Below, in pieces: positions 17,900-52,029 of a stretch of 64,000 nucleotides of DNA. Made by a program: the position numbers and the translations under genes. The stretch's first letter is position 1. Each line of letters starts with the position of its first letter. Source of the DNA: Chrysomallon squamiferum. Lineage: Eukaryota > Animalia > Mollusca. The stretch covers positions 22,072,001 through 22,136,000 of the forward strand of contig CM022673.1 in assembly GCA_012295275.1 (NCBI GenBank), read 5' to 3'. Under the pieces are notes generated by a model, which saw only the letters and a list, made by a program, of their open reading frames with translations, had not been told where the DNA came from and did no database searches.

Positions 17900-17938
<39 letters not shown>

Positions 17939-19002
17939 GAATATAAATATTTTTAATATGATTATAATAATGATATTTATTTATTATCACTTTTATTTTT
18001 TTTTATTATTGTTATATGAAAAGAAAGTACTGACTGAACGCGACTAATGGTTTATCCGTGAAGACGTTGACCAATTTCTCCTCTGTTTCAACACAACAGC
18101 CTCGATATTGACTTCGTAGTGCTCAATATTTGTATAGATACCACGCAGAAAGAAGGCAAGCTCGGGAAAACTTTGTCAACATTATAACGAGACGATGAAA
18201 TGCATAATGTAGATGGTTTGATGATGTTCATGCGTGAGGGTAAACACAATTACTGTTGATGTGGAAAAAGCAAAGATTCAAAAGCACATATTTCGTGTGA
18301 CCTCATTTTGTAGCAGAAGCTATTATTAATTTGCAGTGTTGGTTGTATTTCGATACTGAGTTTTTCATGCAAGTAACAGTTTCTATGAGACAAAACTAAA
18401 TAAAACTGAGATTGAGAAATTTACTCGAAATTGAATAATAAATGTAAAGATTAACATAAAGAAAAAATCTTGATTTAGAAAAGTAAGAATATTTAAAAAA
18501 GCACAAAAAAAACAACAACAAAAAATAAAAAATGTGCTGAATTCAATTTGGATAAAAATTTTAAAAAATGTGTTTCTTTGAGGTTTTAATTATATATCAA
18601 TGTAAAATAAATAAACAAAAAACAAACAAGTAAATAAATAAATAAGTAATAAAAAAAAGGTAAATTAAAAAAAAGAAAAGAAGAAGAAATAAGTAAGAAA
18701 AGAAGTTAAAGTAATAAAATGAGAATATCCCAACAAAAAAAAAAAGAAAAAAAAAAGTCTTTAAGATGCTATTACTCCTCTAAACAAAAACAAACATTAT
18801 TATCTGACCCCACAGCAGGCACTAATGTAACCACGAAGAGAGTTATAATGTTTTTTGTTGGGTTTTTTTGACCGCAAAAGACTCCTCAGCATTTTTTTGA
18901 TGTAATATAGTTTTACAGCAAAGATACATCTATCATGATAAATTTCGAACGCATGCACACACAATACACATACTGAAATATTTATATATTATTTGTGAAT
19001 AA

Positions 19003-19048
<46 letters not shown>

Positions 19049-19751
19049 CAGAATAGCGGTTTTTAATTTGTAATAAATAAAGCACACAGATAAATGATTA
19101 TGGTGAAAGAATTCTTAACTTTTTCTGATTCGATTTTCCTTTTAACTCAGAAAAAAGAAATATAGAAAAAAAGAAAACAAATAATAATGATAAGAAGAGA
19201 ACGTTAAACAAACAAGAGAGAAAAAGAAACGCAGCTGAAGAAAAGAAACTAATCAAAGAAGCTAAAGCTGCAGATGTCACATTTAGTGATCGACAAAGAA
19301 AATATAATGAATGTCGCCAATCACACTTATACCGGATGAAAAAATAATAGCCGGAAAGAAAATCACGTTATTGACAGTTGTGTCGATTTTTAGTTTTTGA
19401 TCAAATGTTTCTTTTCTTAGCACATTTATTATGAACTTTTATTCGAGTTGATTTTGTTTTCTGCTAAATGTGAATTGAAAACATTGGCTAGAAAATATAA
19501 TCAGTTACGAAGGGCGGGCTTTGTTTCTGTGACATGTGTAACGTATTTTCCTTTAAGAGAAATATTTTCGTCAACAGCTAGTGGAAAGTTGTGATGATCA
19601 CAAAAATAATAGAACGAATAAAAAAATAAACAAGCAAATAAACAAACAAAAAATAAATTCGTCAGCTAAGATTATTTCATTTCTTTTCACTATCAAATTT
19701 ATTTATACCTTGATTAGAATTCAACATGTTAGATTCAAATTGATAGCCTAC

Positions 19752-19831
<80 letters not shown>

Positions 19832-20674
19832 CTAAATGAATCTGCGACTGTGTAATTAGTTAATTACTGGTACTTTATCTGTTAACATCAGCTAACTGTC
19901 TAGGAAGCTGTTGAGTGTATTATTTGTCATTTTCTCATGTATTAAAGATTATTTATGTCGCGTTCCATGCAGGCGCCACTTTGTGTGTCCCAAGAGAATG
20001 TATTGGCGATTGTCAGGGCAGCGGCACAAATTACCATTCTGCAGAGTTTAACGTCAAGCGTTAATCTTGTAGTCCAGAGCACCCACTTTAGTGATTATCC
20101 TTATAGCAAGAAAATTTTGTTCGAAGGATAACTTCGAATATGCCGAAACACAGCAGAGTTTTATCTCTACATCTTATTATTAATGAAGGAGATTAACTTT
20201 CCCATAGTTCCACCAAACATGGCCATCAGGTTAACTGCAGTAATAGATAAATTAACAGATTTTCCGTTAGACAGATTAATGGTTAATCCCTTTGTTAAAT
20301 TACCACGTGGCCCGAAACACCTACGTACAATGTATCTGTCTTCTGGCATCCTCCAATAAAATAATCCCGCCTTTTAGCTTAATTGCCGTTTCCCAAAACG
20401 AAGCAAACGATTGGCGCTTACATCAACTGATCCAGGTAAACCATCCAATGAAGGTAAAGACTGTAAAATTGCTGTCTGAAATAAGACTTATAAATTCTGC
20501 AGCTCTCTTGCATTTCATCATTCACTTTTTGAAAGTGCTTTCTTAACATCGGAACATTGGAAAGTAAATTTAGGGACAACGAGGAGAAAATGAACTACAT
20601 TCACATTGTTCAAGCTTTGGCTTTCTGTATTCTTTTCTCCATTCAAGGAATACTGTCAAGAGGTCTATACCAAG

Positions 20675-20760
<86 letters not shown>

Positions 20761-23728
20761 GCTTTTTCCTCTCTTTCTCTCTTTATCTATATTCATAAAT
20801 ATATACTGGTTTTTTCTTTCTGTATATTTTAAATTTTATTTGGGTCACTGTTATAATTTTCTGCAATCAACTCACATACACACAAACACTCACACACATA
20901 CACACACTAACACACACACATATATTAATTTCTTTTTTTTGTCAGCTTTGCTGTTTGTTTGCTTCCTTCTGTCTTTCAGTGTTTTATATGTGTGTGTTTA
21001 TGCAGGTGTATGTATGTATGTATGTATATATTCTTCTTCATCTCTATTAGTCATATTCCTGTCTTATTTGATGTCTCTCTGACTATGTCTCATGTTTTTC
21101 ACAATTTCCTTTTTTAAAGTAGTTATTTACATACTGTTCACAACCATGCTATTGAATTTAAATGAACATGATTAGATATTTCCTGCTTCATATTGAATAC
21201 ATTTTAAATTAAGTAAAATACGATTAAGTAAAATTAATAAATAAAAAGCTCAGATCTTTCTCTATTTATTTATTTATTTATTTCGTTATTATAATTATAG
21301 TAAATTACATTTTTAAGAATTTATAACGATTGCAGGACTATGTCTAATCCTGTTTTCATGGTCTGTATCACACATGCACACACGTATGCAAGCACTAACA
21401 GTATCATACATTAAATGTAACAAATATACAAAACTGAAATAATTTTGTATTAATCAAGAAGGTATTTCGTAAAGAAATTATGGAGACATAGTTACATATA
21501 GCCTATGCGTACTGGATAAGCAGGGCATTAGGAGAGAAAGTAAATATATTACGTTAGGCTTTATAAATAAAAGTATATTAAAATAGGTCAGATTGGAATC
21601 AATTACATATTTCCAAATGTTAACGGTTTGAGAGCAAGTTGAATGAACTAGTAAGTTCAAAATAGAATGATGTGGACCCTTTGAAAGTTTAGTAAATTCG
21701 GTTAGCGTAGATTTCATAACGTGTTATAAAAGGAATTTGCAACTTACTACATTTATTAATTGCTATTAATTTAGGACTACTTACATTGGAATAGTTTGGC
21801 AAGAGATGGAAAAGGGATAGGATAAAATAAGTAATTTAGATTTGCTTACAATAGAACAGAAAAGTAGAATTAGAATTGTTAATGTATCTGACTTCTTGCA
21901 TCCTTCGGTAATATGCCTAGTATTAAGTTAGCCTAGCTTACATTAGAATAATTTAACATAAAAAAAGAGAGTGGAAACAAATCAGCTTGGTTTAATAAGA
22001 TTTTAATCAATTTGGAATCTGGTTATTTTCTCAAGCAGTGAATACTAGGTATATAATAATGTCCGAAATGTCGCGGCTGAATTTTGATTGAGGCAGCTAA
22101 TCGTGGCATTGATGACTTTATGCTGCTTAAAACAACATTAGATTAACGTTCGTAGATGTATCTGCATCTGCACTTTTGTTAAAATTTTAATAGGGAAATA
22201 AAAGAAGAAAACTATTTTGAGTATGAATGTCTTGTTATTGTTAACCTTTGCTGTCACGAGCGAAACTTAAACGCCTGAAAATATTCATCTTCGGATAGTA
22301 CCGAACTAGTTGAGGATTTCTGTGCATTGTTCAACTAACAGAGGGTTGGGAAACTGTCTCAGATGTAGCAATACCTACTAATGTTCACTTGTGGTGGACC
22401 CCTTATTTCTAGCTAGCAACCAGAAGAAGGATGCCATCTTTAATCCCGTCGATTTAGACATTTCTGAAATAAGAACAGAAACCAGACGCGTTTTGTCACA
22501 CACCTATTTCCTTCTCTTGTAGTCTTATAAACAAAATGTCGGCTTTTGTTCCGACTTTTTTTCTACATCTAATTTAGAATGCTTGCTTTGTTGGTCTGTC
22601 AGAAATAAGCTTTTTGTACTGACTAGAATACAGTCTAAGAACACATAGAAATAATTGTTTATTAGAGTTCGGTTTATCAAGCAGCATTCATTTCCAAAAT
22701 CATTCATTTTTGCAATATGGTTGGATATTAAGAGATAACCGAATTAACATTTTTTGTTGTTACGTTATTATTTTTATTATTACTATTACTGCTGTTGTTG
22801 TGTTGTTGCTGTTGTTGCTAATACATGTGTATACCAACGTACACATTTTCAGAGAGAGAGACTGTGTTTCATGTGGGCGTGAGCGCGCTTTTATATCTAT
22901 ATATAAACTGTATAAATATTTTTTGATACAGTTAAACTTTATTCTGAAGCATTTATTCTTCTTTGTTTCTCCTATCATTTTTCATGTGGTAAAAATATCT
23001 TTTTACAAAAGTAAATTAACAGTTATGTTTAGTTGTCTTTCTGCACTAGAAAGTTCACTTGACAGTATTGCTTTAACATATACTTTCGTAATAAGCAAAC
23101 ATGTGACTCTTTGGTTTTATTTTTGGTACAGAAATGCTTTATAATTAATGGAAACAGATAAAATATCATCTACATAAGAGGAAATCATTCATATACTGAT
23201 ATATATATATACAAGATGGCAATAAAGTCACTAACAGTTACTTACAATAACAATAAAGACAAAGCAATTAATCAACAGTCCAGAAATTTATTATTAAAAT
23301 GGTTCTGGTTAATTCTGGTTAATAACAATAAAATACTATGGTAAAAATAGTAAATTAATTACCAATACTGTTCGAAATGCAACCCACTTTTTTTTTTATA
23401 TAAGTAACTATATAGTAACTTTATTGCCACACACTTTTATATATATATATATAGACACTCACATGTGTAGGTATGTTTTGAATTATTATTATATTTCTAT
23501 TATTAATGTAAATTTTATGAAGTGTTTTGCACATTGTCACTAATAATTAGGCAGCTGTTTATAACACCAGGCTCTGTTTCGTCTTTAATTTTGTTGTGAT
23601 TTTAACTTATATGAATAATGCCTTAAACTAGCAGATCAAAATGATCAGGGCGCATCTTTTCCTTCGCACCGTTTTGATAAAACCCTTTACATCTTTCTTC
23701 ATATAAAGCAATATCATCTATTAAATTG

Positions 23729-23876
23729 GTAAATATCGAGAGAAACAAAAATTGTACTATGTATTATTAAACTAAATACTTAAGTGCGGAATAAACAAAC
23801 TTTATCTCAAACCAGATAGATAAACGTGATAAAACTCGTTTCCGGTACTTATTCCTTTTTTAACAGGCATTAATAT
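23729..23876 (-). repeat. Dispersed repeat, copy 2
   Basis: Reverse complement of 16786-16973. Confidence 0.9.
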
Positions 23877-24415
23877 GGCGCTCTCGATACTGTTTTAGTC
23901 ATACCTTCTTTTCAAGCATTCATGTTTGAAATATGTTACGTATTTTAATTTAGAGAAACAATATGCTTGAAGGCTGCTTTATTTAAAGAGATTTCATCAC
24001 AACTTCATTTTATAGGCAAATAACCTGTTCATAGGAAGCAGTAATAGGGAGGACGGCCTGCGTTATTAAATAAGTTTAGTTAATAGCTGAGTTTTGTGTG
24101 CTAGGCGCCTCAACAGAGATTCTGTAAACTTGCATGGCTCTTGGGTATAGACAAACGAAAAGGAAGGCTAATAAAATTATATATAGATATTATTATATTA
24201 TTTCAATGATGTCTATAGCCTTCTATGAAAGCTAGCCCAAGTCTGAAGAGCAGCTCTTACCTCGTTATCAACTATTTAACTCAAAGATACCTGTACTTTT
24301 AGTAATAATAAACACCAAGTCTACTATTTATATCAGTTATTTACAAATATGATGTTTTATATGTTTTAAGAACTTTTCACATAGATAATATGTGTATGTA
24401 TGTATGTATGTAATG

Positions 24416-24448
<33 letters not shown>

Positions 24449-25112
24449 GTGAACATATAGGTGAGTAGGTAGGCGCCCATGTAAAAAATAAAACATAAAT
24501 AAAAAAAGAACTGAAAAAAAGTAAGAAAATAAAAATTTCAGAAAAAAAAGGTAAAAAAAAAAAAAATCGAAAAATAAGAAAAACATGTTAAAGAAAAATC
24601 CATGCCAATAACAACATTACGGAAGTTAGTTTAACCAGTTTTTAGTGGAATCTTTCACTGGTTCGACTTTGATAGCTGGAAAAAACTGTTGTTGCATGTA
24701 TCTTCGGGCCATTTCGTAAAACGACTTTTGTGCCCCTTGAAAAGAAAGAATAACTTGATGCCGTCAGACGGAAAGATAAAGAGAAATGAATTAGTGGATG
24801 AAATTCCCTGCCCAGTATTGATACAACTTACAGAGGCCGTGTAACAAATGGTTAATTCAGAAACTGTTTTCATTTCATTGGAAGGTGATGTCGCTGCTGC
24901 GGATGACGCTGACTGTAAAGACAGTTTATTATCCAATCCATGTGTGCTATAATTGTTATTGATGAAGTATGCAATCCATCAACGTGTATTGAAATAAAAC
25001 ATTTGGCTGCCTGCTGGTTAATTAAGATTCTAAAAAAAAATCATTTTTCTTACTGTAAAGTATTTAATAATTTGGTGACGATTGTTTTGTGTTTTCTTCT
25101 TCTCTCTGTCTT

Positions 25113-25201
<89 letters not shown>

Positions 25202-25262
25202 CTCTATTATCTTCCTGTCTCTCACATACACACATACACACATTGCTTCCTTTCTGTCCTAT

Positions 25263-25304
<42 letters not shown>

Positions 25305-26166
25305 TTTCTCTCTTTCTCTTTCTGTTCTCCAATATTCTGAATCTCTATGTTACGTCTGCCTCTCACTCTGTCTCTTCTCTATCCTCTTTGACAGTTGTCA
25401 CTGAAAAACAAGACCAAAAGAATCTGAATACTATTATATCGAGGTCTCAGTTTACCGTTCCTACAACAGGATTCAAACAGGTTTAATTAATAATCTGTTA
25501 GTGAAAAATAAATTTGTTTTTGAACAGATATGCAACAATGTTTTTCTGTCAAAAACAATTTCAAAATATTACAGTCGTCAATCTCCTGCATTATCTAATT
25601 ATAAGTGAGTGGATGTTCTGTGTAATATTAACCTAGAATACAAAGAGCTAATTAGGTTTTGTCAAAGTAGAATATTAATAACATAACGTGCTGAAATGAT
25701 CTAATTTGACAGCGGTAGTAATCGATAAGTAGAACCTTTGGTATCGATAAATTAAACTCATAGACTCATTTGGGGAAATGATTAGAACACATACCATGAT
25801 CTGTTAAAGAATATGTTAATTTTCATATTATAAATTGTTTTGTAAAAATTTATTAAATGAAGGTTACTCAACAGAGGCAAATATACACACAAAGATACAT
25901 TTCTTTTTTTTAACTCGCGAATGTTCGGCCGAATACTTATACTTATTCTAAGAATGAGAAAATCAATTACAATTAGAACCGTAGGAGTGAAATTAGAGTT
26001 GTTGTGTGGAATACTGTTTTTAATTGAAAGTGGCCTCAGAACATTTAGACCAAATGAGGATCTGCATAATCAGAAATAATTTGACTATGACGGAGTGCCG
26101 GAAAATTTTACTTTACAGAACTTCTACTGGTTTATTTCAAAGTGCTATATATTTTACTCTATGGTT

Positions 26167-26310
26167 GTATGTATGTATGTATGTATGTATGTATGTATGT
26201 ATGTATGTATGTATGTATGTATGTATGTATGTATGTATGTATGTATGTATGTATGTATGTATGTATGTATGTATGTATGTATGTATGTATGTATGTATGT
26301 ATGTATGTAT
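26167..26310. repeat. (GTAT)n tetranucleotide microsatellite with a degenerate extension to about 26515
   Basis: Direct reading. Confidence 0.98.
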
Positions 26311-29300
26311 TTATGTATATATGTATGTATATAACTTTATGTAGGTAGGTAGGTATGTCTATAACTTTATGTACGTACGTATTTATGTATGTATGTATGT
26401 ATGTATAGGTGTGTATGTGTTTATGTATGTGTGTATGTATGTATGTATAGGTGTGTATGTGTTTATGTATGTGTGTATGTATGTATGTTTGTTTGTTTGT
26501 TGTGTATATGTATGTACAATTTTGTTAACCTTGCGAATTTTAATATATTTGTTTTTGTTTTCTTATTGGTCTGTTTTTATTAATTAGTAAATTAGTTTGT
26601 TTTGTTTGTTCAGTAATATATTTCTGTTCAATTCGCCTCTTTGCACTGAGGCTACTGTGTCTTCTTCTTCATCATCGTTATCATCTCCAACTATGTCGTC
26701 GTACTTACAGAATTATCATCTAATGATTTAAGTAATGAAAGTCAGAAAATCTTAAAAGTTAAAAAGAAGGGTACGTACAACTCATGAACCAAACAAAAAA
26801 AAGACTTCAAGTTGCGTCTTTATCATCAAACTCCGGAAGGACATGCTTATGAAAGAGCAAAAGTCCTAGAAATATCAAATGAGAGCACACATTCATTAAG
26901 TTGATGGATTTCGCTAGTTAAGGTGTGTCTGTAAGTATGCCTACTTCACGTCTCATGGTAAATGTAACAACTGGAATATCGATCATCTTCAGAAAGAAAC
27001 AGGTGTACTTCACACACTTATGTCGTCTTGATTCTGAACACAAAGAAAAATACTGGTGAGTGAAGAAACCAAGTTTTAAAATAGTTTTGTTTATATTTAG
27101 AAAATAATTTAAATGAATTATATTTAAAATATAAGACATTTCAAACTGAAGCATCAGTATTAAGAGTCTACCAATAGATTTAAATGTCTCAAAGTGTATC
27201 AGCAAGTTTTCAGTGTCACAATAAGCTTGCCATCTCCCACTGTCTGTTAATAAGCTGTCAGTCTCACAGAAAATAGACAAATATGTTCGTGTACATTAAC
27301 ACGCTTGTGAAAGGTTTCTGCAGTTGTAGTAATTAAAGCTAGAGGCAGGCAAAGATTAATATATTCCAATTACATTAATTCAAATATTTTACAATTATAC
27401 TAACTCAAGCTGCAGGCAAAGTTGTAAATCATCTGTGAAAGTTTGGATAAACCAGATTCAGCTGCCATGTGGTTACAGTAGAAGAGTGCAAGAAAGATCA
27501 GCATTTAAGAACTTACTTTTACAAGAATCAGTAATACAGTAATATTAAAAATTAATGTATAAAATGAAATATCTGAATAAGTTAAAACCTTAATGAAAAT
27601 GAAAAACAAAAACAAAAACGAAGAGAAAAAGCGTGGATGATAACCAGTTCAAACAGCACCGACAACGATATCGTAATTGCATGCAATTTATTTTTAATCA
27701 AGTTTTAAAAATGACCAAAATATTCTGGGAACAAGTGTATGACGAGCGGCAGATTTTAACAAAACGATATCTAACACCTAGTAGATGTAAAACGAACAAA
27801 AAGGAACCTGTAATATCTGCCTGCTGTACGCAACAACATCATTACGTAGTCAAGTCACGAAAGTAAATGCGAAATCCGATTTATCGAAAACTAAATGCAA
27901 TGAAAACTGGTAACAGAGCTGAAATTAAATAATGATATTTACTACACTAACGAATCGCCCACGTTGTCCATTTTTTTTTTTTTTTTAACTCATCTGTAAA
28001 AACAGTTTCTTTTCTGTGTAAGATGTGAATGGCAGTGAGGCAATGCTGTGACGATATGTATATCATGTAACATCTGATAATTAATTATTTTCTGGGTTTC
28101 TTCTCTCGCCGTTGTTATAACAAAGATCTACCTCCCACACAACTGTGAAGAAAAACTAACAACTCACCTCAGACTATGTCTGGCTCTGCGGCAGCTAATA
28201 AATGCTATATATTACGTCATTATCTTCATCATCAAAATCTCCTGTATCTATTACTTTTAGGTTTTGGACTAAAATCATGAAGGTAACCTAACTTTTAAGT
28301 TCTTGAGTGGAAATCAGGAACGTATACTTTATCTAATGGTATTACTTTTTTGGAATGAATACATACTGTATCTAATATTTGTAGATATTTGAACTGAATT
28401 CGTTAAGGTATCCAACATTTACAAACTGTAGATATTTTAACTGAAATTATGAACGTTTGATGTTCTTAGAGAATCTTGATAAATTAGTTATCTATATAAT
28501 AATAATAATATTAATTTTGTGTGTGCTGTTTAACAGATTTTTAAAATTATTATATTTACAATAATTTAAAATATAATCCGATTTTAAGCTTTTCGTTTAT
28601 TACAGTCAGACTAAGGTCACAGCATAGTTTTCAATATTATGGCTGATTGATAAATATATTTAATGTCATCGAATGTATAAATGTTTGTGTGTGTTTGTAT
28701 GAATGTGTAAGTGTGTAAATAAATGTTTATGTTTATTGGCTTCAGGCTATTGAATTTACAGACAGAAACGTTACTCTCACATGCACAGACATATCTATAT
28801 GTACATTTGTGTCATATTCTTGTTCTAGCTAAATTATAAAACCGTTCTAGCAAAAGCAGGTAATTTTCTCATACTAACGACATACAGAACTAATTACTCA
28901 TAGATTGGGCCTGCTAGATCGTATAGAAGATCCAAAGTCAGAATTACTTTCTAGGGAGATTAATTATAGGTTAATTAGAAAGTAGGTGAGTAACACTGGA
29001 TGTTAGGCTGTTCGGTTTTCCCATTAGAATCATGATCGCACTGGAAAGCGAGTTTTGCGGTGTAAGTGTCCAAGGTGGTGCTGGTACATAACCATTACAC
29101 AAATAAATTTGTTCACAAAGTGACGAAGGAAAATTTATCAAATGTTTGCACTGTTTTGTAAAGTGATACATTAGTAGATAATATCCGAAATTCTCATTTA
29201 AGAACAGAGTTAATTAATTTTTATACTAAAGTAAACGGTGATGTTGGGAAATAAAATATCGATATTTTATTGTCAGCCTAAGCACTGCTCCTTTCTTGAA

Positions 29301-31339
29301 GAGCAATGTAAATATGTACATTATTATAATTTTATTTGTTTATCGATGAATATAGATTTTTATGAAATTATATTTCTGCTTGTGACACTGATATAATCAA
29401 AATCTGTAGTACGTGCTGTCTTGTCAGGTATTAAATGTATGTGAAATGTTTCTCTGTTGCTGATACGTCACGTGGAACGCATTTTAGATCTGTGACATCA
29501 AGTAATGGCGGGTTTGAAACTGTATAAATAGCAGAGGCATCATGACTGTGTGCGTGTGTGTGCACGTGTGTGTGTATGTATGTATGTACCTATCATTTCT
29601 TTTTCTGTTTAACTCCAAATAATGATGCTTCGCGTAATAACTCTTTATTAATATATAATATCAGACTATGTTCCAGACGGAAATACTATGAACGGACAGA
29701 AAAATAATTATATTTAAGAAGAAAGTTCTAACACATACAAAACCAATTTACTGTCGTCACCATGATCACCATCAAGATCATCACTTTATCCCTATTCATC
29801 AACATCAGTAACACAACAAAAAAACAACATTAAAAAACTAACAATATTTTTAAGATGACAGTAATGCAAATTTAGAAATATCTAATATTAAGTTTTTACG
29901 AAGAATATACTACAGAGCTATCAAATTTCTGTTAACGACATAGTTTCAAAGTACAGACAGGAGTTTGTTCTAGAGAAACTGTAAATAAATAAATTTAAAA
30001 ATATTATTCGTCTAGGTTGAAGTATCAGTTTACTATGTCACATTGTACTTACAGTCTGAAAAATAAAAATCTGTGTAGAAACAGGCAACATGTTTGTGAA
30101 TATAAACAAGAGAAGTACGATTCTCTTCTCTGTAAATACCTTTATTTCTAACAATTTTTAATTCCACATCTAAAAAATGTTCTCGTCAAAATCGAAACAA
30201 ATATTTTTTCTAACTCGTTCATTTTGTTTTTCCCTTTTTTCAGATAATGATTTAACTGTATTTTCCTTTTCATTTAAGATACGTTTTTTTTAATTTTCTC
30301 TTGTTATACAAGTGGAGACAGTTAGAATTATTCAACCAAGTTTCTTTAAGAGATGTTGCTTGAAGCAGTTTTGTAAAAAAAAAAATTCTAAAATGTTCAT
30401 TAATTCCCAGATTATTCCATCTTGAAAGGAAGGTTTTTATTTAAGAAGAAAAAATCTGTAAAATGGAAGAAAATATTATTTTGTTTAAATAATCGAAAGT
30501 TAATGTCATGATTTCTGAAAATTAATCTCAAGAGTTTTCCATGTAAAATTTTTTTACTCCAAAGTTACAATTTAAGTACAGTTTTTAATTTAATATTTTA
30601 TTATTATTTCTAAATGAATTTTTTTCTTTTCTTTATTTCGTTTATTCTTTGTATTAGTAAATAGATGAATGTCACTCGGTTGTTGAAGAAAAAAGTAGAA
30701 AAGAAGACCTTGAAAATGGATAATGACATATTAATTAATATAAATGGGTGAGAAAATGGTCGATTGCGAAATAACTTAAATGAAGATTATAGTTTTAATT
30801 ATAAATAACCTTGTTGAAATATCGCAGACAACGAAACTGGTTTAACGAATAGATCATTATTTCTCTTAACAGCAATGTTAGACTACGTTTTGGTGAAATA
30901 CGTTTTGGTTTGAACGTCCACAGTAAAATACTCTTCAGCTTTCCGGATACTTAACTTGGACAATTAAAGTGGTTGGATAATGGTATGGTATCAAAAAAAA
31001 AAAAATAATAATAATAATAATAATAAAATACAATTGAAAAAAGAAAAGGTAAAGAAAATATTAATGCAGGAAATGTTTTATTCAGAGGGAATAATCAAGT
31101 AAACCTCGACCACAATGACATTACTATTAAACATAATCTCAAATACATTAATTAATTTCATATACTTAATAATTTAGTATCTACCGCGTGGATATCTAAC
31201 TGGTTTATGGTTAATGCGCTGGTTAACGAGCGTGTGTGTATGTTTAACAGTTTAGAAAAGAGGATATATTAATAACCGTTTTTAAATATGAAAGTATTAA
31301 GAAATAACATTCGACTGCGTTTCTGAAAATATGTAATAC

Positions 31340-31409
<70 letters not shown>

Positions 31410-32880
31410 TAAATAATTAAAATGTAATAAAATTTAAAATACATACACACATAGACTAAGTTTTGCAGCCAGTGTTGAAAGCCGACTGATCAGTTTTCAT
31501 TTCAAGTAATCTTTTAATCCCTTAATCCTGGTTATCATTACAGGTATACTCATAATGATGACACTGGTTACCTTGAATATTTTGTCTTTCCGACTAACTG
31601 ATTGTTTGTAAACTGTGTAAAACACCGGAGTAATTTTATTTACAGCCTCCTGTCATTTATCTCTGTATTTCATGTTGGAATCAATAATCAAATAATTTCA
31701 GCACAAAAACTGGCATGTCCAATTTCATTAGCATGTTCATAAAGTGGTATCGTGTAAACGAGAAAAGCTTTTAATTAAATATAAAACGTCTGCTTTGAAG
31801 TTTGGTGTGTTGATTTGTTCACTTAACGGCAGATGGAAAATAGACAACTGTGCATGTGCATTATCAGATCGCATAGGGTACAAACAACATACGTGCATAT
31901 CCACATTATCAGTACGAATATATATGTAATGTATGTTTTATTTATTCATGTGTGTGATTTACTGGCTGGACATTCTGGTAAAGAAATAATCTGACGTAGT
32001 CGTGCATATCATACGAAGTGTGACACACGCATGGGAAATAAAACACTTTCCAAATTTGTACATCACACACGTATCCGCTACAATATTGATTTAAGGTACA
32101 CAAATTAGCCTATCAGGGAACTGTCCAAGTCATGGAAACAGCGGCCTTTGTCAGCCTTTAAATACTTTGTGAATCACTGGAAAAATCAGTGTAAATAACA
32201 GCAGCAACAACAGCGTCTACAGAGAAGTAAATAGGCCATAACATGTTAAAACAGATATCTGAGTTTCTAACATCATCACCATCATTACCAATTAAAACAG
32301 CAATGATAATGACGATGATGATGACAAATATGATATAACATGAAGAAGAACCTCTGAACTAAAATGTTTAGGAACGACAGTCTAAACTAAGTTTTAGTAG
32401 TATATTTTTATAATCTTAGTTTCTTCTAACGCTAAAATGAGCAATAATTTAAAAAGCTTTAATCTAACATTTATAAAACGTACTTCAGTTTCCACATTTT
32501 CTTAACAATACGTACTTTGTAAACACAATTACTTGAAGATTTTTTTTTTCTGTTTATCATTATCCATTTGATTTTACATTCTTTTTTATTTCTATTTATT
32601 ATTATTATTATTATTGTTGTTGTTGTTGTTTTTGTTTTTGTTGTTGTGTTATTACAAGTTTTGTGAAAACAAACTGTGATATTTTCATCCCTCTGACTGC
32701 TCTTCCAGTAAGAACCGTAGCTGAAGCTAGATTTAGATTAGATTAAATCACAGTTGGTCTAGGATTAAGACAAGGAAGAGAATTTGATTAGATGAAGTGT
32801 GTTTTTAAGTCCATGTTGAAGAAATTTCTGATTACGTTCCAGAGTTATACGAACTAAAACAGTGAGTATTATGTTTTCAG

Positions 32881-32976
32881 AGAGAAGCTCTTCAGAATGT
32901 CCCCAAGGTTGGCGAGAGGTTCACGGTTATTATGTAGACTCAGGCCATCCGATAGTGGAAGTTCTTTGTATAAAAG
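32881..32976 (+). CDS. Prohormone-like precursor, internal exon: RSSSECPQGWREVHGYYVDSGHPIVEVLCIK
   Basis: gttttcag acceptor; AAG|GTAAAG donor; 96 nt, symmetric phase 1; GC-richer island; one Cys pair. Confidence 0.65.
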
Positions 32977-33330
32977 GTAAAGTTTAACATTCAGTGTATA
33001 AGTTACAGATAGGTAGTGCTGGGGATTGAAACTAAGAAGAACAAATTCAGAACATTACTTTTTAACTAATCCTCCAGTTAACACTATCTTACACCCTAGA
33101 TTATGTTCTAAACAGACGTACTTTAACGTTTAGATGACGAAAAGAAACATTTTAAATCTGAACATATAAAATTATTCGCAAGATTTTGATCTGATTAGCA
33201 CGTTTAAATTTTACAAGATACTGTAGTCAACTGTAAATTATAAACATGGATTAATATGCAAACATAAAAGATATTAAAATCAGTGCATACAATTTATTTT
33301 CTCGTATTATCAAATACTAAACTAAAAGTA

Positions 33331-33364
<34 letters not shown>

Positions 33365-34904
33365 ATAAACAAAAATAACATGCATCAGCTCAAACTATGC
33401 ACATTTCCTCCAATGTCTCTTTAGCCAAGACGTGAACACTGTTCACGACGTTTGTCAATGGACAGCAACATTAAAATTCAAAACAAAAAGAAAAAAAGAA
33501 ATGAAAAGAAAACTAAATAAAACTATAAAAAATATAAATAAATAAAGCCTGCAAAGACAGAAGCATTTAGTTACAATCAAAGAGAATGAGTTTAAACAGA
33601 AAAATTATGCACTCATTTCGTATTAGTGTCTAGGTAAGTCAGCTCATTCGTTATTTTCTGTGAAGAAACTGGGGGATAACGGAAATAAAGTGAGAAAAAT
33701 CCAGTTAGAAGCTACTTAGCAGTATATTAAAGATAAAATGCAGCTGAGAATTACGCCTATCGCGATAAAACATATTGAAGGTTTCATCAGGATTTTTTTT
33801 TTTTTTTTTTTAACTGCATGGAATTATAAGTCATTATGAATTTCACGTAATTATTGGTTTTTCCTTTTAAACAACATTAACTATTTTATTTTCACAATCT
33901 ATTCCTGGAATATTTTAAACTTTCTTTTTAGCAAGATAACATCTTCTGAGAGTATTTAGAATTCAGTATTTATCTAGTACTTATTTCGATTCGGTTTCAA
34001 GTATATGTATCCAGCTATTTACCTCGAGTAAAACAAGCGAAACGAACCGGGTCTGTGGATTCCTTTAGAATAAAGAAACATAATATACTTCATGTTCTAT
34101 GATTATTATTATTATCATTTTAAATAACGGTGGAAAAATAAGAGCAACTGAAAGATAAAATCAGCAGCTGATAGTTCCCACTGACGTACTGTTTATAGAA
34201 TTATTGACAGTTTCAACACTGATTCTCGTAGATTCGCCAAAGAGAAACTTTTGACGATGATACGTAGGCTTTAATTCGCAACGTTAGAAGATACCGGAAC
34301 ACAAAAAGCATAAAAAGATAAAATACTATGACTTTTTCACACTGTACGAGGCAGTAGTAAAGTAAAAACAAAGACACTGACAGCTCGGAGTCACGGTTTG
34401 ATGCATAATCCGCCGACGTTTTTTGACGGCAAGTAATTGCTGGCGAAACGATTGAAGCAATCGAAACTGTTTGGCTTCCGGCATATGGATATGAACTCCC
34501 TTGTTCCATTGTGTACCCAGCAAAATATATTACGTGTCCTGCAGGAGAAATAAATTGCCCTAGTTAATCCCTTTTTTCTCAAGTCTGTGCTACAATGCCC
34601 TAAACATGATTTGTTCTGAGATTACAAGTTCATTTAATAAACCAAATCAAACTAATTTCCGTACTAGTGACCTTTTCGGCAATATCGCATTTTCTTTTAT
34701 TTTCCATCTCTTATTTCTTTCTTTCTTCAAATGTTTTTGTATTTTCTTTCGTTTGTTCCAAAATAAGTATTCGATGTAATTAATTTGGTCTAAATATCTT
34801 AACATTGCTTCAAATTGGTACAGTTAATTATTTACTGATTATAAACATGTTTGTAAATAAGCTGTACAGTAAAAGATTATTTTTTTTATTTTCTCTTCAA
34901 ACAG

Positions 34905-34934
34905 GGCCAGAGAATCCAGCCAAAACAAAACGAG
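34905..34934 (+). CDS. Prohormone-like precursor, 30-nt micro-exon: GPENPAKTKR
   Basis: Long pyrimidine tract plus aaacag acceptor; GAG|GTATGT donor; symmetric phase 1; ends in a KxKR convertase site. Confidence 0.75.
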
Positions 34935-35785
34935 GTATGTATTAGTTAACAGCAAACAATATATTAAATATTACACTGATATAATTTATTAGAAGATCTG
35001 TATGCAAGACACCACTAACTCACATTTTAAAGCTTTTGGAAAAACGTTCTACTCTAAACATCTCATTGAAATAAAGTCATTGCATTACATTATAATGAAA
35101 AATATAAAATTATATATATAAATTATTGCAAAAAAAATGAAACAAAGAATGAGAAAAAATAATAATAATAATTTAATAAAATAAACTAATAAAATAAAAA
35201 TTATTAAAAAACTATATATGCTACAAGTATACTTTACATAGCTATCAACCAAATTACGTTTGTTTCGGCTTGAGAGGAAGTACAAAGTTCGAGTGTTAAG
35301 AGTACTGGTTGATGATCTGTTGAACAAAATTCGTTCTCAGCTTGAATAATCAATAACTCAATTCGTATCTGAGACTGCGTGTTAATGTTGATTTGAGTTA
35401 ATTTAAAAACTAAACTTTTGTGAATCTGATTAGAAAGCAATTAGAAATCAGATGAGAAAAACTGACCAATTAGATGAATGAGGGAATCATTTTATATGAA
35501 AATTCCTAACGATGCTTAAACTCAGTTAAAATATGTCTATCACACAACCAAATCACAATTCATTAAATCTTTCCAGACTCGTAAATTATAATATTTTGTA
35601 AGTTTTAGAATTTCACTGATTTTAAACGTGGTAGGTTAAGGGAACGCTCAGCTGAGATATGAATAATATATAATGATCGTTTAACTTACTTTTTATAAAT
35701 CCGCGTCCTAATTATTATTATTTATGCAATTTTATTGTTTCTCTGTAATACACATTAATTTTTTCCTTTTCTTTTTTAATTCCAG

Positions 35786-35817
35786 TTTTCGGCAATTCTG
35801 GGTGGGGCAGAAAATAG
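35786..35817 (+). CDS. Prohormone-like precursor, last exon: VFGNSGWGRK* (predicted VFGNSGW-amide)
   Basis: Strong pyrimidine tract plus ttccag acceptor, phase 1; G-RK-stop amidation signal; AATAAA at 35862-35867. Confidence 0.75.
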
Positions 35818-38800
35818 TCGCCAACGTTTTCGCCATTTGGACTTCTGCAAATCTCAGAAAAAATAAAGTTTAACAAACTTATACATTTTTCACTTTTTTG
35901 TTTTTATTTATTTATTTAGTATTTTGTGTGTTTTTCTACAACTGTTACACTTTTGCTGTAATTCAGCTGAACAGGAAAGACGAATGCCAAATATGGAAAA
36001 ATCTTTCAAACTATCGCAAAGGATTAAAGGTTGAAATTAAAGTTCAAAGTTGCGGGTCTCTTGTCGGGATCGGATATTGTAGTGTACCAGTTAGTTTTAT
36101 TTCCCAGTACTCCTTGTGTATACTTGGACTGTTCGTATCCTAGCGATGAGTTCAGTATCACAGATGTATGCCTGACCGAACAGTATGTTTAATGTTTTGT
36201 TCTACAGTATCTATACTAGTTTTTAATTAGCAAGAGCAAATTACAGAATGCGCCTCACTTCAGTAGGCTGATGTTTTTATTTCTTTATATATAGTTGATT
36301 AATAAATATTTTTACAGATGAAGGTTTTAACGTTAAGTGAAATACACAGGTTAAAGATTATACAAGAACTCACACTTGCAAATTTAAAATAAGTAAATAA
36401 AAGAAATAAGTCAACCTTAATTTTCTTCACCATGCCCATTTCAGTGTCAAGATATCTATCTCTGACATACACACACACGAACGTATACACATACAATTCC
36501 CCCCCTCACTCATTCACACATGCATCTATATATAATACACACATATACACACAGATATTTCTATATATCCATACGTTGATAAAGTACCAGCTGTCAATTA
36601 ATTCAAATACTTTTCACGTTCGAAAATCTAAAATTTACAATACTTTATCTTATATCAGATTCATTCGTTGGTTAAACAAATGATAATTATAAAAAAATAA
36701 AAGTCAGGAGTAAATGAATCAAACAACGATATTAAACTAAATTTATTTTTACGGTCTACTGGTTTTAATTCGGCGCCTTTCGGATAAGCTTTACCAGACA
36801 CCGCTTAAAATAACTGCACACGAATCTCTCTTGTAGTTTAATTTTTGTAGCGAAGAGAGAGAAAAGTCAACGATTTCTTTTTTGTTATCCTTTTACTCCA
36901 GAGAACCCTTCATTCCCTAGAAAAACTGATTAACTTGAACAAAACAATGTGACTAAAAGCTATTTGCTTTGCTACAGTTATTTCGCGGTTAATGAGTGGA
37001 CATGCTGAAATTAAAGTTTTTCACTAGATATTCGTTATTAACGTCAAACAGTAACGTTAATCTGGAAAGTTCAGCATTAACATGATCTCACTGTAGTATT
37101 AGGAATTCTGCACTAGCATCCTAAGGGAGGATTTCTTCACAAAAAAGACTCGGAAACAAATTAGAAACTCAAAACACGTAGAAATCAAGAACATTTGTCA
37201 CTGAGAGATTCCTTAGAGATCACGATTATTTTTAATTCTTTCCATTTAATTTTTTTCTTATTTTCTTGTATACTTTCTTTTTTGTTTTCAGTCACACACA
37301 CACATGCAGTGTTGCTCGTGCTTCTTATGTCTCTTTATTTTTGCCAGTGATATCATTTGATGAAGACACATGACTGAATTCATTTTCAATCATTATCATC
37401 AAATCTCATGTTACACACAGAAAGGCTATTTAAATATTTACATGCAGAAAGGCTTGAAATCTTGTTCGTATAATCCAAAATTGGGATTATTGATTTTCGG
37501 ATAACACTTGTTTGACTGTATTGCCAGTGTTATTGTTGTTGTTATTATTTGTTATGTTGTTGTTGTTGTTGCTGCCATTATGGATGTGTATACGTTTATG
37601 TGTGGAGATTTATATATATATATATAATTATTTTTGTTATAAATATTTATACGTATACGTGTGGGTGTATACATATGTTTATAAGAAAAATAATTAAAAC
37701 AACACAAAACAAATCGAACTATTGCTTCTTGGCTTACAGCTATTTTAACTTCCACTGTTTTCATGATGTTTGAAAAAAGTGAATTGATTATTTCATCGAT
37801 GTTTTAAATTTTTATTAAAGGTTATATCGTTTCTTAGATTTATATATAAAAAAGAAATATGCTAAAAGCGTCATTTTCTTTGGATTATGAAAAAGAAATG
37901 GATTGCATAAAAATATTTTAAAAAGAAACAAAATCTCTATATGAGAAGTAGAAATTGTAATAAAAAGTGCAATGAGAAATAAAAAATCTGAATAGAAAAA
38001 TTAAACAGTATTTTTTGTCTGCTGTGAGAAGGTTTCATTTGAAAACAGTAATTGTATTTATAATAATAACAGTATAACTAAAACAACAACAATAATAATA
38101 ATAATAATTAATGAAAATTAATGAAAATTAATAATACAATAATTTTATTATTAATTTTCATTAATTATTATTATTACTATTGTTGTTGCTGTTATATTGT
38201 TATTATTATAATTATTGCTATTATTTTGTTATTGCTATTGTTTGTTTATTTACTTACGTTGTTAGTAGTGAATTTCAAGTTCATACTCAGTTAAAATATT
38301 ATTTTAAAAATTGTCGAAAGTACACATACAAAAACACAAATTAACAAATAAGAAAGAAAAAAATGAATATAAGTTAGTTCATGCTGACTTTATTCCACAG
38401 TTTTCATCTAGATTAATAATTAAAATATAATTATTGCTAATTAGTGCGGGAAAGTGTCTATAAATTGGGTACAATTGAGGGGAAATAACTCTGCCGCACT
38501 TTCTTTTTACTGAGCATTACACAGGTATGTAGGGAATAAATAGTTACTGTTCTAAAATATCAGATTTAGACTGTGAAGGTTCGACTGATAAATGTGATGC
38601 ACTAACGAATTATTTTTTTTTCTTCTTTTATTTATTAGCTCACGGCTCTCCACACTAGCATACTGATGTACAAAATAATTTATTTGTTATTTTCAAAACG
38701 ACCTCTTAAGAACTGAACACTGAAAAGGTAATTTTGAACAACATCAACTAAACAATCACAAACCCACACCCACAATTAATGATACAAGAAATACCACAAC

Positions 38801-46206: not shown

Positions 46207-47317
46207 GTCCATCACGTTACATTAATATATTATCGAAGCTGATTTAATACGTATATCAAATGTGCGATATGTAATGATATGTAGTAATATATAAGATATC
46301 AATAATTTTCAGTAATGCTTGTAAGGTTATATATATATATATCATAATCTGAATCCGTAACTAACAATATACTGATAAATATCAATGATCATATACATAG
46401 ACCATTATTTAATATTATTTAATTAATAGAATGCATAAAATGTCGACAGCTTAATTTTATATGGCAGAGTACCTGGTAAGGACATACAAATTAGGGTAAA
46501 AATAGCTAGATATTTCTTTTAGCTCAGAAAAAATAAATAAATAAATAAATAAATAAAAAAATAAATAAATAAATAAATAATGTTAAAACAAAAAACTATA
46601 AATAATTCAGAATCAAATATAAATAAGTAAATAAACACGACAGATAAATAAGTATAAATAAGAATAAACTAAAAAGGAAAACATCCAACCAGCCAACAAA
46701 CCAAGCAAACAAAGAAACAAACAGATATCAATAAATAAATAAATAAATAAATAAATAAATATTCTATAAATTGTTAAGATAAAAGAGTATTTAAGAAACA
46801 AAAACTGGTTAATTTAGACAAATTTCACGTACTGGACATCACATACCTAACGTTTTGATGTGCTTAACAGTGTAAAAAACAGACCTGTATATTTAGCTCT
46901 GAGCTACGTGTAAATGTTTGCGACTAATAATAAGTACTATTATAATCGGGTGAGTTAAGCTTGTCGCTGTGAATAGCTCAACTTTTGAACATGGTAAGGT
47001 AAAATATAACAAACCAATGCACCGAAGCAGAAATAATACATAGTCAAACTGAGTTTGGCACAAAACGTTTGTAATAACTAGCTCTTAGTTAATTATGTTT
47101 AGCGTCAAAGAAGACGGGATGTTTACCTAACGTTTTCTTCACAGCTAAGTGTAACGGGATATTATTGTACACTGGCATATTCCTAAATTGGCTATGTACC
47201 TATGAATATCTACGAATGCATGTCGGTAAGCAGGTCAGTGTGTATAATCAGAAGAGTTTAACTTGCGAATATGAGTTGATATTTGACTGTCTGTCACTGG
47301 TCTGACACCTGCTGGTC

Positions 47318-47863
47318 ATGGAGTCCTACAGTTCAGAAATTGAAGCTGAAGTGTTGGAGGATACAGCCAGTTCGATTTCGGAATACATCGCAGAAACGAA
47401 AGACGCCATAATTCGATTCAACGTAGGAGGCTGTAAGTTTCAGACATTTGAATCAACTCTGAACAAACCTTTAGACTCTAGCGTAAAACTCTGTGACAAG
47501 GAGTTCCTCCAGGGCCACTTCATTGAGGAAAATAATGAATATTTTTTTGACCGAGATCCAGAAATGTTCCGCGTCATTTTGAACCTGCTGAGAACGGGGA
47601 GACTTCATCTTCCGGCAAACGTGTGTGGCCCAGTCGTGAAAGAAGAGCTCGAGTTCTGGGGTGTTCATCAAGTAGACATCGAGGCATGCTGCTGGGGACA
47701 TTTTAATGCCTGGAACTCGACAGAGAAAGCTTTGGCCAAGATGGAGAAGGAAAGAAAAGCACACGCTGACTCTCTCAGCAGTGAGGGTAAACATGGGTTA
47801 GAGAAAGTTAGACACATCACTTGGCTGCTTTTAACTAAGCATACGTCATCTATAGGGTCACAG
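47318..47863 (+). CDS. Voltage-gated K+ channel, Shaw/Kv3 (KCNC)-like paralogue A, exon 1 (T1/BTB domain)
   Basis: FNVGG..F.T, EYFFDRDP, and RTGRLHLPANVCG...ELEFWG...IEACCW (HX5CX20CC Zn site); CAG|GTAAGT donor at 47864, phase 0. Confidence 0.95.
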
Positions 47864-48051
47864 GTAAGTGATATTGGACATCTCTCTCCATGATTCTAGT
47901 TAATAATCAGAAACCAATATTATAAAATAGTAGGAAAGAGTCTGTTAGCAAAGATAACTATTATTATTAATTATATTTTTTAATCTTACAATTAGAACTA
48001 TCACAATATTTCAAAGAACAAGAAAATAAACGCAAAGACAAACACTACATA

Positions 48052-48109
<58 letters not shown>

Positions 48110-48700
48110 GTTTCAGTATTTAACTTTGTGAATTTCGAAACTGGAAATACCCGCACATATGAGGCTTTGTTTGATAAATGAATAAACATTTTACTAGAAA
48201 GCAGAATCAGAATGATTGTTTATTTATCTATTTAGTGAAAGCATTTCGAAAACCTTAAACATAAAGAGACCTTTGTACGAGTAAACTCGTTCCATTACTG
48301 TATAACACGAGGTGGGATCTATTTTCAGATTCAGTTATATTTTATGTTCTTGTACACAAACAGTTCTCTCTTGAACAATGTTTGACGTCATCCAGACTTA
48401 AGCTAGGTCAAGGGAACTAAGGTTATTGCTGTCACTTCTGTAAGCTGTTTATTTGTAGACAAGCTATTCATAAAGATAACTGCTGTACCGTGCTTGTATT
48501 AATTCGTATTACAGACTACTGAAGCCAGATTTATTAATATATTCAAGTAATAGATCTCGTTTGATTTTGTAATACTACTGCAGTCGAACTTTGGACAACT
48601 TGCTGTTCAGATATTGGTACCATCATATCAAAAAATAATGCAGTCTTTCTTGTTCAGAATTTGATGTTTTGTTACTTTATAACAAACAAATACCACATTG

Positions 48701-48783
<83 letters not shown>

Positions 48784-51108
48784 GTTTTTACAATTTTCAA
48801 TTCTCTGAATATGCATGTTGAAGTTTTTTCTATTAGGATTATTATATAATCAGTAAAAAAGAATTATACGCCATCCAAACTTATTCAGATTTGGAAAGAC
48901 ATATTAGTAAAACGATGAAAGCTTTATACAATTTTTTTACAATAATACTGAATAAAGATGTTTATTAGAAGTCAACAATAACAAAATAAGTCGTTTTTCG
49001 TAAATAATACTGTGAGCAGAGAAAATAAGGCGGAATTTTTTTGACTGTTAAATAATAATAATAAAATAATAAAACAAAATAGTAGTCCGGAAAGATACCT
49101 AGCTCCACGAAAATGTTCTAGAAACATTAATCACTCAGTTAGCATCCGTGTGCATTGATCAGTGCTTGTAACCCACTTCTCATGCTAGGAAACAATCTCT
49201 GAATTGTTTGCTGTTGGAGCAATACCCAATACTGATGTAAAGCAGCTTCAAGTACTACTACAGTTTGAATTGGTGGATTCCTTTGTCAAATGATAGTCCA
49301 AGAATGTCCCGTTGGACTTCAACAGCAAATTGACTGTTATTGTGCGTCTAAATATGAATTCACCCAATCGGTAACCCGCAGTACACTCCAAGATCCCTGC
49401 AGCACATAAAAAGTTGATGGTTATGTCTATTAGTCAGCTGAAGACTTTTAAGAGGTCTATACGATCGATATTCCTCAGCCTTGAAAGGATTTCTGATCCT
49501 CTGGAGTGCGAATTGCCGGTATTCCATTGGTTCATATGTTAAGGTGTACTGGTGAAGGGGACATCTTACAAGTTAAATCAGATTTCGATCTTCAAGAACA
49601 CATGTTTTAGTCTTGCGGACGTTGGACTGTCCTTGGAGATATCAGTTTGCTTCTCAGTCTAGTGATAACTACTAGCATATGGTGAAAAGCTAGCTGTCTT
49701 GTATTAGCCGCGCAAGACATTCAGCCAATTTTTATTCGTATTATTCTCCATCTCTTGTCATTAGAAAGTTCAACTGAAACAAAATTAAAGTGTTTAGACA
49801 AACGATAAATAGAAGTCCACGTTAGTTTGCTACACTCCAGGCTGTAAGTGCATGGCACAGTGAAATATAGACAAATATATTACTGTTTATAACACTAATA
49901 ACATTTATTTTTAATATTTACCTCAAGCCAAAATACTATTCAGATATTGTTTAGATGGCGATTAAGTTTTTGTATTACGTATGCTGGTCTGTCTAAATTT
50001 AATAATTACACTTTTCGAAAACAGATTCAACAACATTAAATCAATGTGTATAGGTATAATGTGTGTGTATGTTTGTATACATATACATACACACACACAT
50101 ACACATACACACACACATACACACACACACACACATACATACACACGCATACACACACACACATAAATACCTAATCACATTGGTCGAATGGATTAAATCA
50201 TTGATAGAGAACCTAAACAAATACAAAAAAAAAAAATACACAAATTAAATTTGAAATATCATAAAACACAACTGAGTTTTCACTGATAAAAATCAAATAC
50301 AATATAAAATATAATAAAACAGACAGTGGACAAACTCTAGCTCGTTGTAACTGACGTCACAGTAGTGTTGCCAGCGGCAATTCAAAGGCCTCTTTATGTA
50401 TTTCATTGTATTTTTGTTGTCAGCTGACTGACTGTAAATGGAGAACGCTAGAAGAATGTTAATGCGCTCGGGTGAGCAGCCAGCTCCCAGGTCCTGGCTT
50501 TTACAAACAGATCACTGCGACAAGCTGGCGGTTACTCGATGGTGACAGGGCGTGGTTGTAATTTCAACTTGTATTTCCCGTGCGTTTGTTTAGGGTTTAT
50601 GTTCAACTCTCTGTGCTAGCTGTATCTTGCTGCACAGAGCTGAGTGTATGTCAGCAATATAGAAAAACAAATAACAATCAATAATATGAATAATTGCTTG
50701 TTATTTCAATATATGTTAGTATATATATATATATCTGTGTGTGTTGTTGTATTATATTTTTATTCCGTTAGTACCTATGTATTACCAATACCTATCTATC
50801 ATACAATTAAACATAAATACACAATAACACATTAGTGCAAAACGCACACATACATATATATGCTAATCCTTTGTAATGTTGTATGTAAATGATACACATA
50901 AATAATTTATATATTAAAAATACTGGCAAGGTTAGGCATTATCTTAATTTTGTTATTTTGTTTTATTACTATACTATGATTACAAAACAACGCAATTTGA
51001 TGGTATGTCGATAATTAAAAATTTATAGTTTTTGTTGTTGTTGTTTATTGTTTTATCGAACTATATGGATATATTTCACTGGGATGCTTACTATACTCTC
51101 TGTTTCAG

Positions 51109-52029
51109 GTTTACGGATGGATTTCTCTCGTGTTTGTAATGATGGCAATTTTCTCCTTCTGCGCGACCACGCACACTTTCTTCCGCGTTCCCGTCTCTCT
51201 GCCACCGAGTTTTAACACTACCGAAGAAGAATACAACGTCACCAACAACATCGTTACGTCGGAATCGGAAAGTGTGAAAAGCAAGAGCAGTGTGGCCACG
51301 AGACCTCACGAGGCTCTGGTGATTCTCGACATCGCGTGTCTTGTGTTCTTCAGCCTGGAGTACCTCATCAGAATGCTCTGTGCTCCACACCTCTTGAAGT
51401 TCCTCAGATCCCCTCTCTCGGTGGTGGACATGCTCGCTATACTCCCAGATTATGTGGAACTCATAGCCAAAACCATAGACCCTTCGTCAATGGAGGCAGG
51501 AACTTTTGTGAACTTCATGCCTCTCCTCAGACTGATGCGAGCTTTTAGGATATTCCGCCTCATCCGTCACATTTCTGGCTTGTGGGTTCTCTTCTACACT
51601 CTGAAGGCTAGTCGCAAAGAACTGTTCATGATGCTCGTTTTTCTCTTGGTGGGTATGCTGCTTTGTGCATCTCTTATGTACTACGTTGACGATAAAGAGA
51701 CATTCACAAGCATCCCGCATTCGTTCTGGTGGGCTGTTATTACCATGACCACCGTTGGGTACGGAGATATGTACCCGACTAAGCCTCTCGGGTACCTGGT
51801 TGGTTCGTGTACGGCTGTTTTTGGGGTTCTTATGCTTGGTTTTACTATTCCGGCTCTGGTAAACAATTTCGCCGTGTATTATCATCATTTAGAGTTCGCT
51901 GAAGAAAAGGAGAGAATAATAAAAGAAAGAGAAAATCTAGAAAAACAGAAAGCGTTAGAAATAAAAACAGTCAACGGAAAAGCGACAACAGACACTATAG
52001 AACAATTACCACTGGCAACACTGACATAG
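51109..52029 (+). CDS. Shaw/Kv3-like K+ channel paralogue A, exon 2 (S1-S6 and pore); joined protein 488 aa
   Basis: tgtttcag acceptor; S4 RLMRAFRIFRLIRH; WWAVITMTTVGYGDMYP selectivity filter (TVGYGD at 51751-51768); TAG at 52027-52029. Confidence 0.96.
   Translation, partial: VYGWISLVFVMMAIFSFCATTHTFFRVPVSLPPSFNTTEEEYNVTNNIVTSESESVKSKSSVATRPHEALVILDIACLVFFSLEYLIRMLCAPHLLKFLRSPLSVVDMLAILPDYVELIAKTIDPSSMEAGTFVNFMPLLRLMRAFRIFRLIRHISGLWVLFYTLKASRKELFMMLVFLLVGMLLCASLMYYVDDKETFTSIPHSFWWAVITMTTVGYGDMYPTKPLGYLVGSCTAVFGVLMLGFTIPALVNNFAVYYHHLEFAEEKERIIKERENLEKQKALEIKTVNGKATTDTIEQLPLATLT

Follow-up and report, generated by a model that had tools for sequence, protein, structure and literature searches.

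A candidate small-exon prohormone gene in Chrysomallon squamiferum predicted to yield a single C-terminal GW-amide peptide

The DNA considered here (the window) is a stretch of 64,000 nucleotides (nt) from the mollusc Chrysomallon squamiferum (assembly GCA_012295275.1, contig CM022673.1, positions 22,072,001 to 22,136,000 of the forward strand), and all positions below count from its first letter. The window holds a series of small exons that read together as a putative four-exon gene, whose product would be a short secreted precursor ending in one amidated heptapeptide, VFGNSGW-amide. The features of this gene are as follows.

20489-20495, plus strand: TATA-like element, putative in function, about 100 nt 5' of the proposed start
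20590-20674, plus strand: proposed exon 1, with the ATG, a predicted signal peptide (about residues 1-23) and a phase-1 donor
32881-32976, plus strand: exon 2, 96 nt, phase 1-1, residues 29-61, with C-x22-C
32898-32900 and 32967-32969, plus strand: codons of Cys35 and Cys58, both in exon 2
34905-34934, plus strand: exon 3, 30 nt, phase 1-1, a linker ending in Lys-Arg plus the first base of the Val codon
34928-34933, plus strand: predicted Lys-Arg convertase site, in exon 3
35786-35817, plus strand: coding part of exon 4, 32 nt including the stop, with the remainder of the heptapeptide, Gly and Arg-Lys
35806-35808, plus strand: predicted amide-donor Gly codon, in exon 4
35862-35867, plus strand: AATAAA, candidate polyadenylation signal 45 nt past the stop, weak on its own

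Exons 2 to 4 are the part of the gene described in the original prediction, and re-deriving coordinates, lengths and phases from the window returned the same three exons of 96, 30 and 32 nt, all in phase 1, with the C-x22-C spacing falling within exon 2 and the AATAAA located 45 nt after the stop as claimed. The introns of this cassette are all GT-AG and all of phase 1, small phase-1 exons being ordinary in such peptide genes, and the exons join in frame to give the C-x22-C segment, a short linker, KR, VFGNSGW, G, RK and the stop, which reproduces the ending first proposed. Exon GC content is 45-50%, against about 30% for the window. When the splice sites of the gene are ranked by a simple consensus matrix among the window's 7201 GT and 6601 AG sites, the strongest are the exon-3 acceptor (top 0.23%) and the donor of that exon (top 0.47%), followed by the exon-4 acceptor (top 0.67%) and the exon-2 donor (top 1.7%). 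The splice sites had been called good, a description that holds for these four of the five (top 0.2-1.7%) and not for the exon-2 acceptor, which is mediocre (top 17%); the alternative acceptors at 32843 and 32908 were rejected, being in the wrong phase for exon 1 or losing Cys35. The pattern G[KR][KR]-stop occurs once in the six frames of the window, in exon 4, and the peptide-coding pattern does not recur within the window when up to three mismatches are allowed. One DNA run (X1) carries G for A at 32915, which alters an Arg codon of exon 2 synonymously and is the sole variant over 201 nt; it lends slight support to exon 2 as a coding exon, as a single site in a run that may be the source sample itself. 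A search with 32000-36200 found no matching RNA run, the query being long relative to the exons and the search therefore weak, and no match to the exon-2 stretch came from the three sets of RNA contigs that carry the same organism label; these results say nothing on expression. Exons 2 and 3 are both symmetric, and skipping of exon 2 would give an in-frame precursor of 48 residues without the hairpin described below.

The prohormone reading gains support from a candidate signal-peptide exon at 20590-20674, with its phase-1 donor and the TATA-like element at 20489. The 28 codons of this exon contain a hydrophobic core with a hydropathy peak of 2.9, no further ATG lies between the TATA-like element and 20590, and by hydropathy, phase and TATA box the exon is a good candidate for the signal peptide that prohormones of amidated peptides carry. 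On the plus strand of the interval 14000-32880 it is the sole candidate at a donor score of at least 5, a threshold equal to its own score; at a donor score of at least 2, four weaker ATG candidates appear in the same interval. The donor itself is mediocre (top 6.5% of GT sites in the window). We consider it likely that exon 1 joins exon 2 across these 12 kb, and at the same time the join is insecure, because signal-like exons arise elsewhere in the window: at the same threshold there are nine on the two strands of this AT-rich DNA. Joined to exons 2-4, exon 1 would complete an 80-residue prepropeptide with Cys35, Cys58, KR at 69-70, G78 and RK at 79-80, that is, a product with a single dibasic site, a terminal G-RK and an even number of cysteines past the signal peptide. 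Given this splicing, a dibasic site before the peptide and a Gly-basic amidation signal after it are both present. The proposed intron 1 also contains, on the plus strand, two weak exon candidates that are symmetric (phase 1-1), at 20946-21005 and 24885-24941, the first of low complexity.

How readily might such an arrangement arise by chance? Singly, the GRK-stop motif and the AATAAA are no evidence, because 3.1 occurrences of G[KR][KR]-stop are expected in six frames, against the one seen, and the window has 2.8 copies of AATAAA per kb. A loose two-exon cassette with a polyadenylation signal appeared in 76 of 1020 Markov-simulated windows, and the loose cassette in 26 of 503 and 44 of 491 windows of further simulation sets, while on its minus strand the real window has eight overlapping chance cassettes, these without an AATAAA. 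It is thus conceivable that the model is wrong or dead, being a chance alignment, a pseudogene or the tail of a longer protein, and that no amidated heptapeptide is made; the 5-9% frequency of loose cassettes, the minus-strand cassettes and the two weak candidates within intron 1 all favour such a view, as does the breadth of a scan that spans many windows, in which rare chance events are to be expected somewhere. Stricter cassettes are far scarcer: a dibasic end with AATAAA within 100 nt appeared in 1 of 503 and 1 of 491 simulated windows (2/994), and the strict cassette, to which a third GC-rich in-frame upstream exon is added, in none of the 994, counts that give an order of magnitude only, since the tiers were set post hoc, after the locus was known, and that come from simulated windows with 892-953 exon pairs versus 1504 in the real one (about 40% fewer). 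The frames are all open, the GC content of the exons is high, and upstream, in matching phase, there is an independent signal exon with a TATA box. Weighing these points, we judge the chance or dead model quite improbable; the cassette of exons 2-4 very probably belongs to a real gene as its 3' part, and we hold with high confidence that the gene is real.

The proposed maturation of the precursor follows established prohormone biology, from which we infer each step. The signal peptide would come off around residue 20-23, a convertase would cleave C-terminal to Lys69-Arg70, a carboxypeptidase would trim Arg79-Lys80, and PAM would turn Gly78 into the amide, releasing VFGNSGW-amide (residues 71-77; computed MH+ 765.37) together with an N-terminal peptide of 45-48 residues (computed mass about 5.07-5.38 kDa, net charge -1). 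We regard this processing into an amidated heptapeptide and an N-terminal peptide as probable. For exon 2 as a single sequence AlphaFold predicts a two-stranded beta-hairpin with a tight turn (predicted local distance difference test score, pLDDT, 89; 77 with the flanks included), whose register would place Cys58 near the loop that bears Cys35, and the cysteine pair suggests a predicted Cys35-Cys58 disulfide closing the hairpin. Fold searches gave nothing significant (Foldseek best E 3.1, VIA-align best Z 2.1), and at 31 residues the hairpin is too small to assign by fold, the C-type lectin N-terminal motif, EGF-like and Sushi folds having been considered in the comparison.

Neuropeptide spacers are usually acidic and unstructured, and a propeptide predicted to fold, unlike them, would suit a real gene with the same processing whose product is exocrine or defensive, destined for a salivary, mucus, mantle or symbiont-facing secretion; in that case the hairpin with its disulfide would be what the gene chiefly makes, or else the Trp-amide would have its effect outside the animal. 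Another small secreted and cysteine-rich gene, of the same small-exon build and on the same strand 7-9 kb upstream of exon 1, points in this direction too, although the two neighbouring secreted-peptide genes have no detectable sequence similarity. Typical antimicrobial peptides are cationic, unlike the hairpin peptide with its net charge of -1, and the devoted KR-peptide-G-RK end is a hallmark of regulated neuroendocrine processing. An exocrine product, the main rival reading, is in our estimate possible and on the doubtful side.

Searches for relatives bear on the same question. The protein queries were single short exons, never the whole precursor, so that an orthologue of 50-60% identity could escape, and the sequence searches did not cover unannotated eukaryotic genomes. 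The exon-2 frame gave one candidate among proteins of 71-2000 residues, and none at E<=10; a word search with exons 2-4 pooled gave no candidate among proteins of 4-90 residues; and the ESM Atlas held no usable match for exon 2. Pfam returned no family for exon 1 or exon 2 and the PDB sequences no match for exon 2, both at low sensitivity for queries this short, and to that extent neither exon shows a protein domain foreign to neuropeptide precursors. A phmmer search with exon 2 against 1.84 billion representatives yielded five matches at E<=0.001, which we rejected, all five being repeat proteins that sum four to eight weak stretches. Among metagenome contigs (28 of 64 parts scanned) one of 593 matched stretches passed, an off-frame match to exon 2 on contig L001 that we attribute to chance; the bacterial open reading frame that holds it, L001:1574-3271, presumably resembles a methyl-accepting chemotaxis receptor. 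The lack of a homologue in very large protein collections is to be expected of fast-evolving secreted peptides, and it favours an exocrine product.

In the literature searched, FGNSGW is absent from the main texts, and the peptide-related papers among the matches listed for SGW-amide variants concern MIP, AKH, RPCH or accessory-gland peptides of insects or crustaceans. The supplements of four of the sources searched (PMC8557429, PMC5996578, PMC8398477, PMC6523705) contain no match to the precursor in their searchable parts, and the unsearchable parts may hide a relative; the supplement of PMC10036341 has no match to SGW, and one file of the supplement of PMC6425005 none to GWGRK. The suggestion that the peptide is undescribed thus stands within the mollusc catalogues searched and does not reach beyond them. 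Orphan precursors are routine in mollusc peptidomes, with 13 lineage-restricted precursors in scallop (PMC5996578), 44 newly characterised ones in oyster (PMC8398477) and eight lineage-restricted ones in abalone (PMC6523705). Scallop Vamide, LRYamide and GNamide, oyster GSWN, WGAGamide and RTLFamide, and abalone MAP1-8 are likewise orphan signal-peptide precursors with dibasic sites, and among such precursors some combine cysteine peptides with amidated peptides. None matches the present one in sequence in the parts of those sources available, and many come with peptide or expression evidence, whereas this gene is known from its sequence alone.

A GW-amide end is itself familiar, RPCH having one, and the original prediction set the precursor apart from the layouts of APGWamide and RPCH; to these we add MIP/allatostatin-B, a comparison it lacked. 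VFGNSGW-amide resembles the MIP/allatostatin-B/WWamide peptides as a Trp-amide of their 7-9-residue kind, with an aromatic residue five positions earlier and KR plus G-K/R processing, and SGW-amide endings occur in Tribolium and Drosophila MIPs (PMC6425005). Mollusc MIPs have the form W-x4-7-W-amide and come from precursors of 4-25 copies, their first Trp being present in all of them and reported to be important for activity (PMC8514136); the peptide here is V-F-x4-W-amide, with Phe for that invariant Trp, in one copy, and behind a cysteine-hairpin propeptide. APGWamide/RGWamide precursors share the GW-amide terminus and carry tetrapeptide repeats, then a C-terminal Cys pair 20-30 residues apart, with a phase-0 intron between (PMC8557429). 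The spacing of 22 fits this pattern, whereas the position of the pair and the phase-0 intron do not: in place of N-terminal xPGW/RGW-amide repeats there is a single C-terminal heptapeptide, and the Cys pair stands N-terminal to it, in one phase 1-1 exon. With AKH/RPCH/GnRH/corazonin the precursor has in common one short peptide in which Phe and Trp-Gly stand close to the end, but theirs begins with pyroglutamate directly after the signal peptide, as in the AKH precursor of Reishia (PMC10036341), whereas ours is C-terminal, at residues 71-77, and starts with Val. Both separations drawn in the original prediction are thus borne out, and the precursor belongs to none of MIP/allatostatin-B, APGWamide/RGWamide and AKH/RPCH, though its predicted mode of working is like that of a Wamide prohormone.

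Might it nonetheless be a highly derived, single-copy offshoot of MIP/allatostatin-B or APGWamide/RGWamide whose repeats were lost? The Phe-x4-Trp-amide of the heptapeptide mimics the spacing of the mollusc MIPs, and the Cys pair falls within the range of the APGWamide/RGWamide precursors; the first Trp is missing, however, one copy stands against 4-25, and a Cys pair that is C-terminal to the peptides and split by a phase-0 intron in those precursors is here N-terminal, in one exon of a gene whose introns are all of phase 1. We consider such descent very improbable. Several precursors of similar name or motif were also examined and rejected. The scallop 'GWamide' (PMC5996578) is unrelated to this precursor; like oyster GWE it is a long multi-copy precursor with GW at the peptide start and a C-terminal cysteine-rich part, so that the name and the GW dipeptide are what they have in common with ours. 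Oyster GSWN, GWE and WGAGamide (PMC8398477) were set aside, the GSWN and WGAGamide precursors without their sequences, as were the multi-copy NGEW of Platynereis (PMC3890597) and VHGY of Reishia (PMC10036341), the latter sharing only a tetrapeptide with exon 2.

Our best reading is that the precursor is a lineage-restricted prohormone. In its full form, a four-exon gene encodes an 80-residue prepropeptide that gives rise to VFGNSGW-amide and the 45-48-residue hairpin peptide, and the Trp-amide acts through a protostome Wamide-type G protein-coupled receptor (GPCR); we see the chances of this complete chain as roughly even. The Trp-amide would act on a receptor of the MIP/RGWamide/myosuppressin group, whose ligands have amidated aromatic ends. 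Such a receptor is the most likely partner because this protostome expansion is activated by amidated aromatic C-termini (PMC8557429); Wamide-gated channels were rejected as a target, the clade having been described from annelids (PMC11993918). Expression in neuronal or neuroendocrine cells and action at a receptor of this group are the least certain parts of the reading, suggested here by analogy. A bolder version, which we think unlikely, is that the gene would be the first member of a Wamide family as yet unrecognised, in gastropods and possibly in lophotrochozoans more widely, in which a single-copy Phe-x4-Trp-amide with a co-released hairpin would be the native ligand of an orphan receptor of the MIP/RGWamide group; such a family could have been missed because exons this small slip past gene annotation and past neuropeptide screens that look for repeats.

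Several observations count against the best reading and deserve to be set together. To the mediocre exon-1 donor and exon-2 acceptor, the signal-like exons found elsewhere in the window and the missing first Trp must be added that no orthologue with a kept peptide, KR or GRK appeared in the single-exon protein and metagenome searches. Across molluscs the majority of neuropeptide families are conserved (PMC6425005), and orphan status therefore fits an exocrine product at least equally well.

Were the precursor expressed and processed as predicted, it would represent a new precursor layout, with a signal peptide, a one-disulfide hairpin and a single C-terminal GW-amide, a combination absent from the mollusc catalogues checked. 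This is a new layout of a familiar kind, inferred here from the DNA only; it points to neither new chemistry nor a system of a new kind and, short of orthologues, may extend no further than a single lineage. At the same time, VFGNSGW-amide would, if real, provide a cheap and exactly specified seven-residue ligand with which to deorphanise Wamide-group GPCRs of molluscs, a set with several uncharacterised members (PMC8514136). The locus also shows how single-copy peptide genes with small exons can escape annotation.

The second small-exon gene mentioned above, at 11170-13999 on the plus strand, has good splice sites and is predicted to encode a secreted peptide of 59 residues with six cysteines. 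Its features, and those of the other genes in the window, are as follows.

11170-11206, plus strand: exon with the signal-peptide start, phase 1, of the six-cysteine gene
11580-11634, plus strand: second exon of the six-cysteine gene
13867-13954, plus strand: last exon of the six-cysteine gene, with AATAAA at 13994
5067-10081, minus strand: PEX10 orthologue, seven exons
47306-52029 and 55513-57397, plus strand: two tandem two-exon Kv-type potassium channel genes

The signal peptide of the six-cysteine gene looks short, and a further exon is possible; its last exon has no match in Pfam, and its leads in the ESM Atlas all score under 0.9. PEX10, whose start lies about 1.1 kb from that of the six-cysteine gene, head to head, is 46-75% identical to Gigantopelta aegis across its exons, and for one exon the sole match at E<=1e-10 among 26 candidates is that of G. 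aegis, at 75% identity. Each of the Kv-type genes consists of a BTB_2 exon and an Ion_trans exon, and the two are apparently divergent paralogues of a local duplication.

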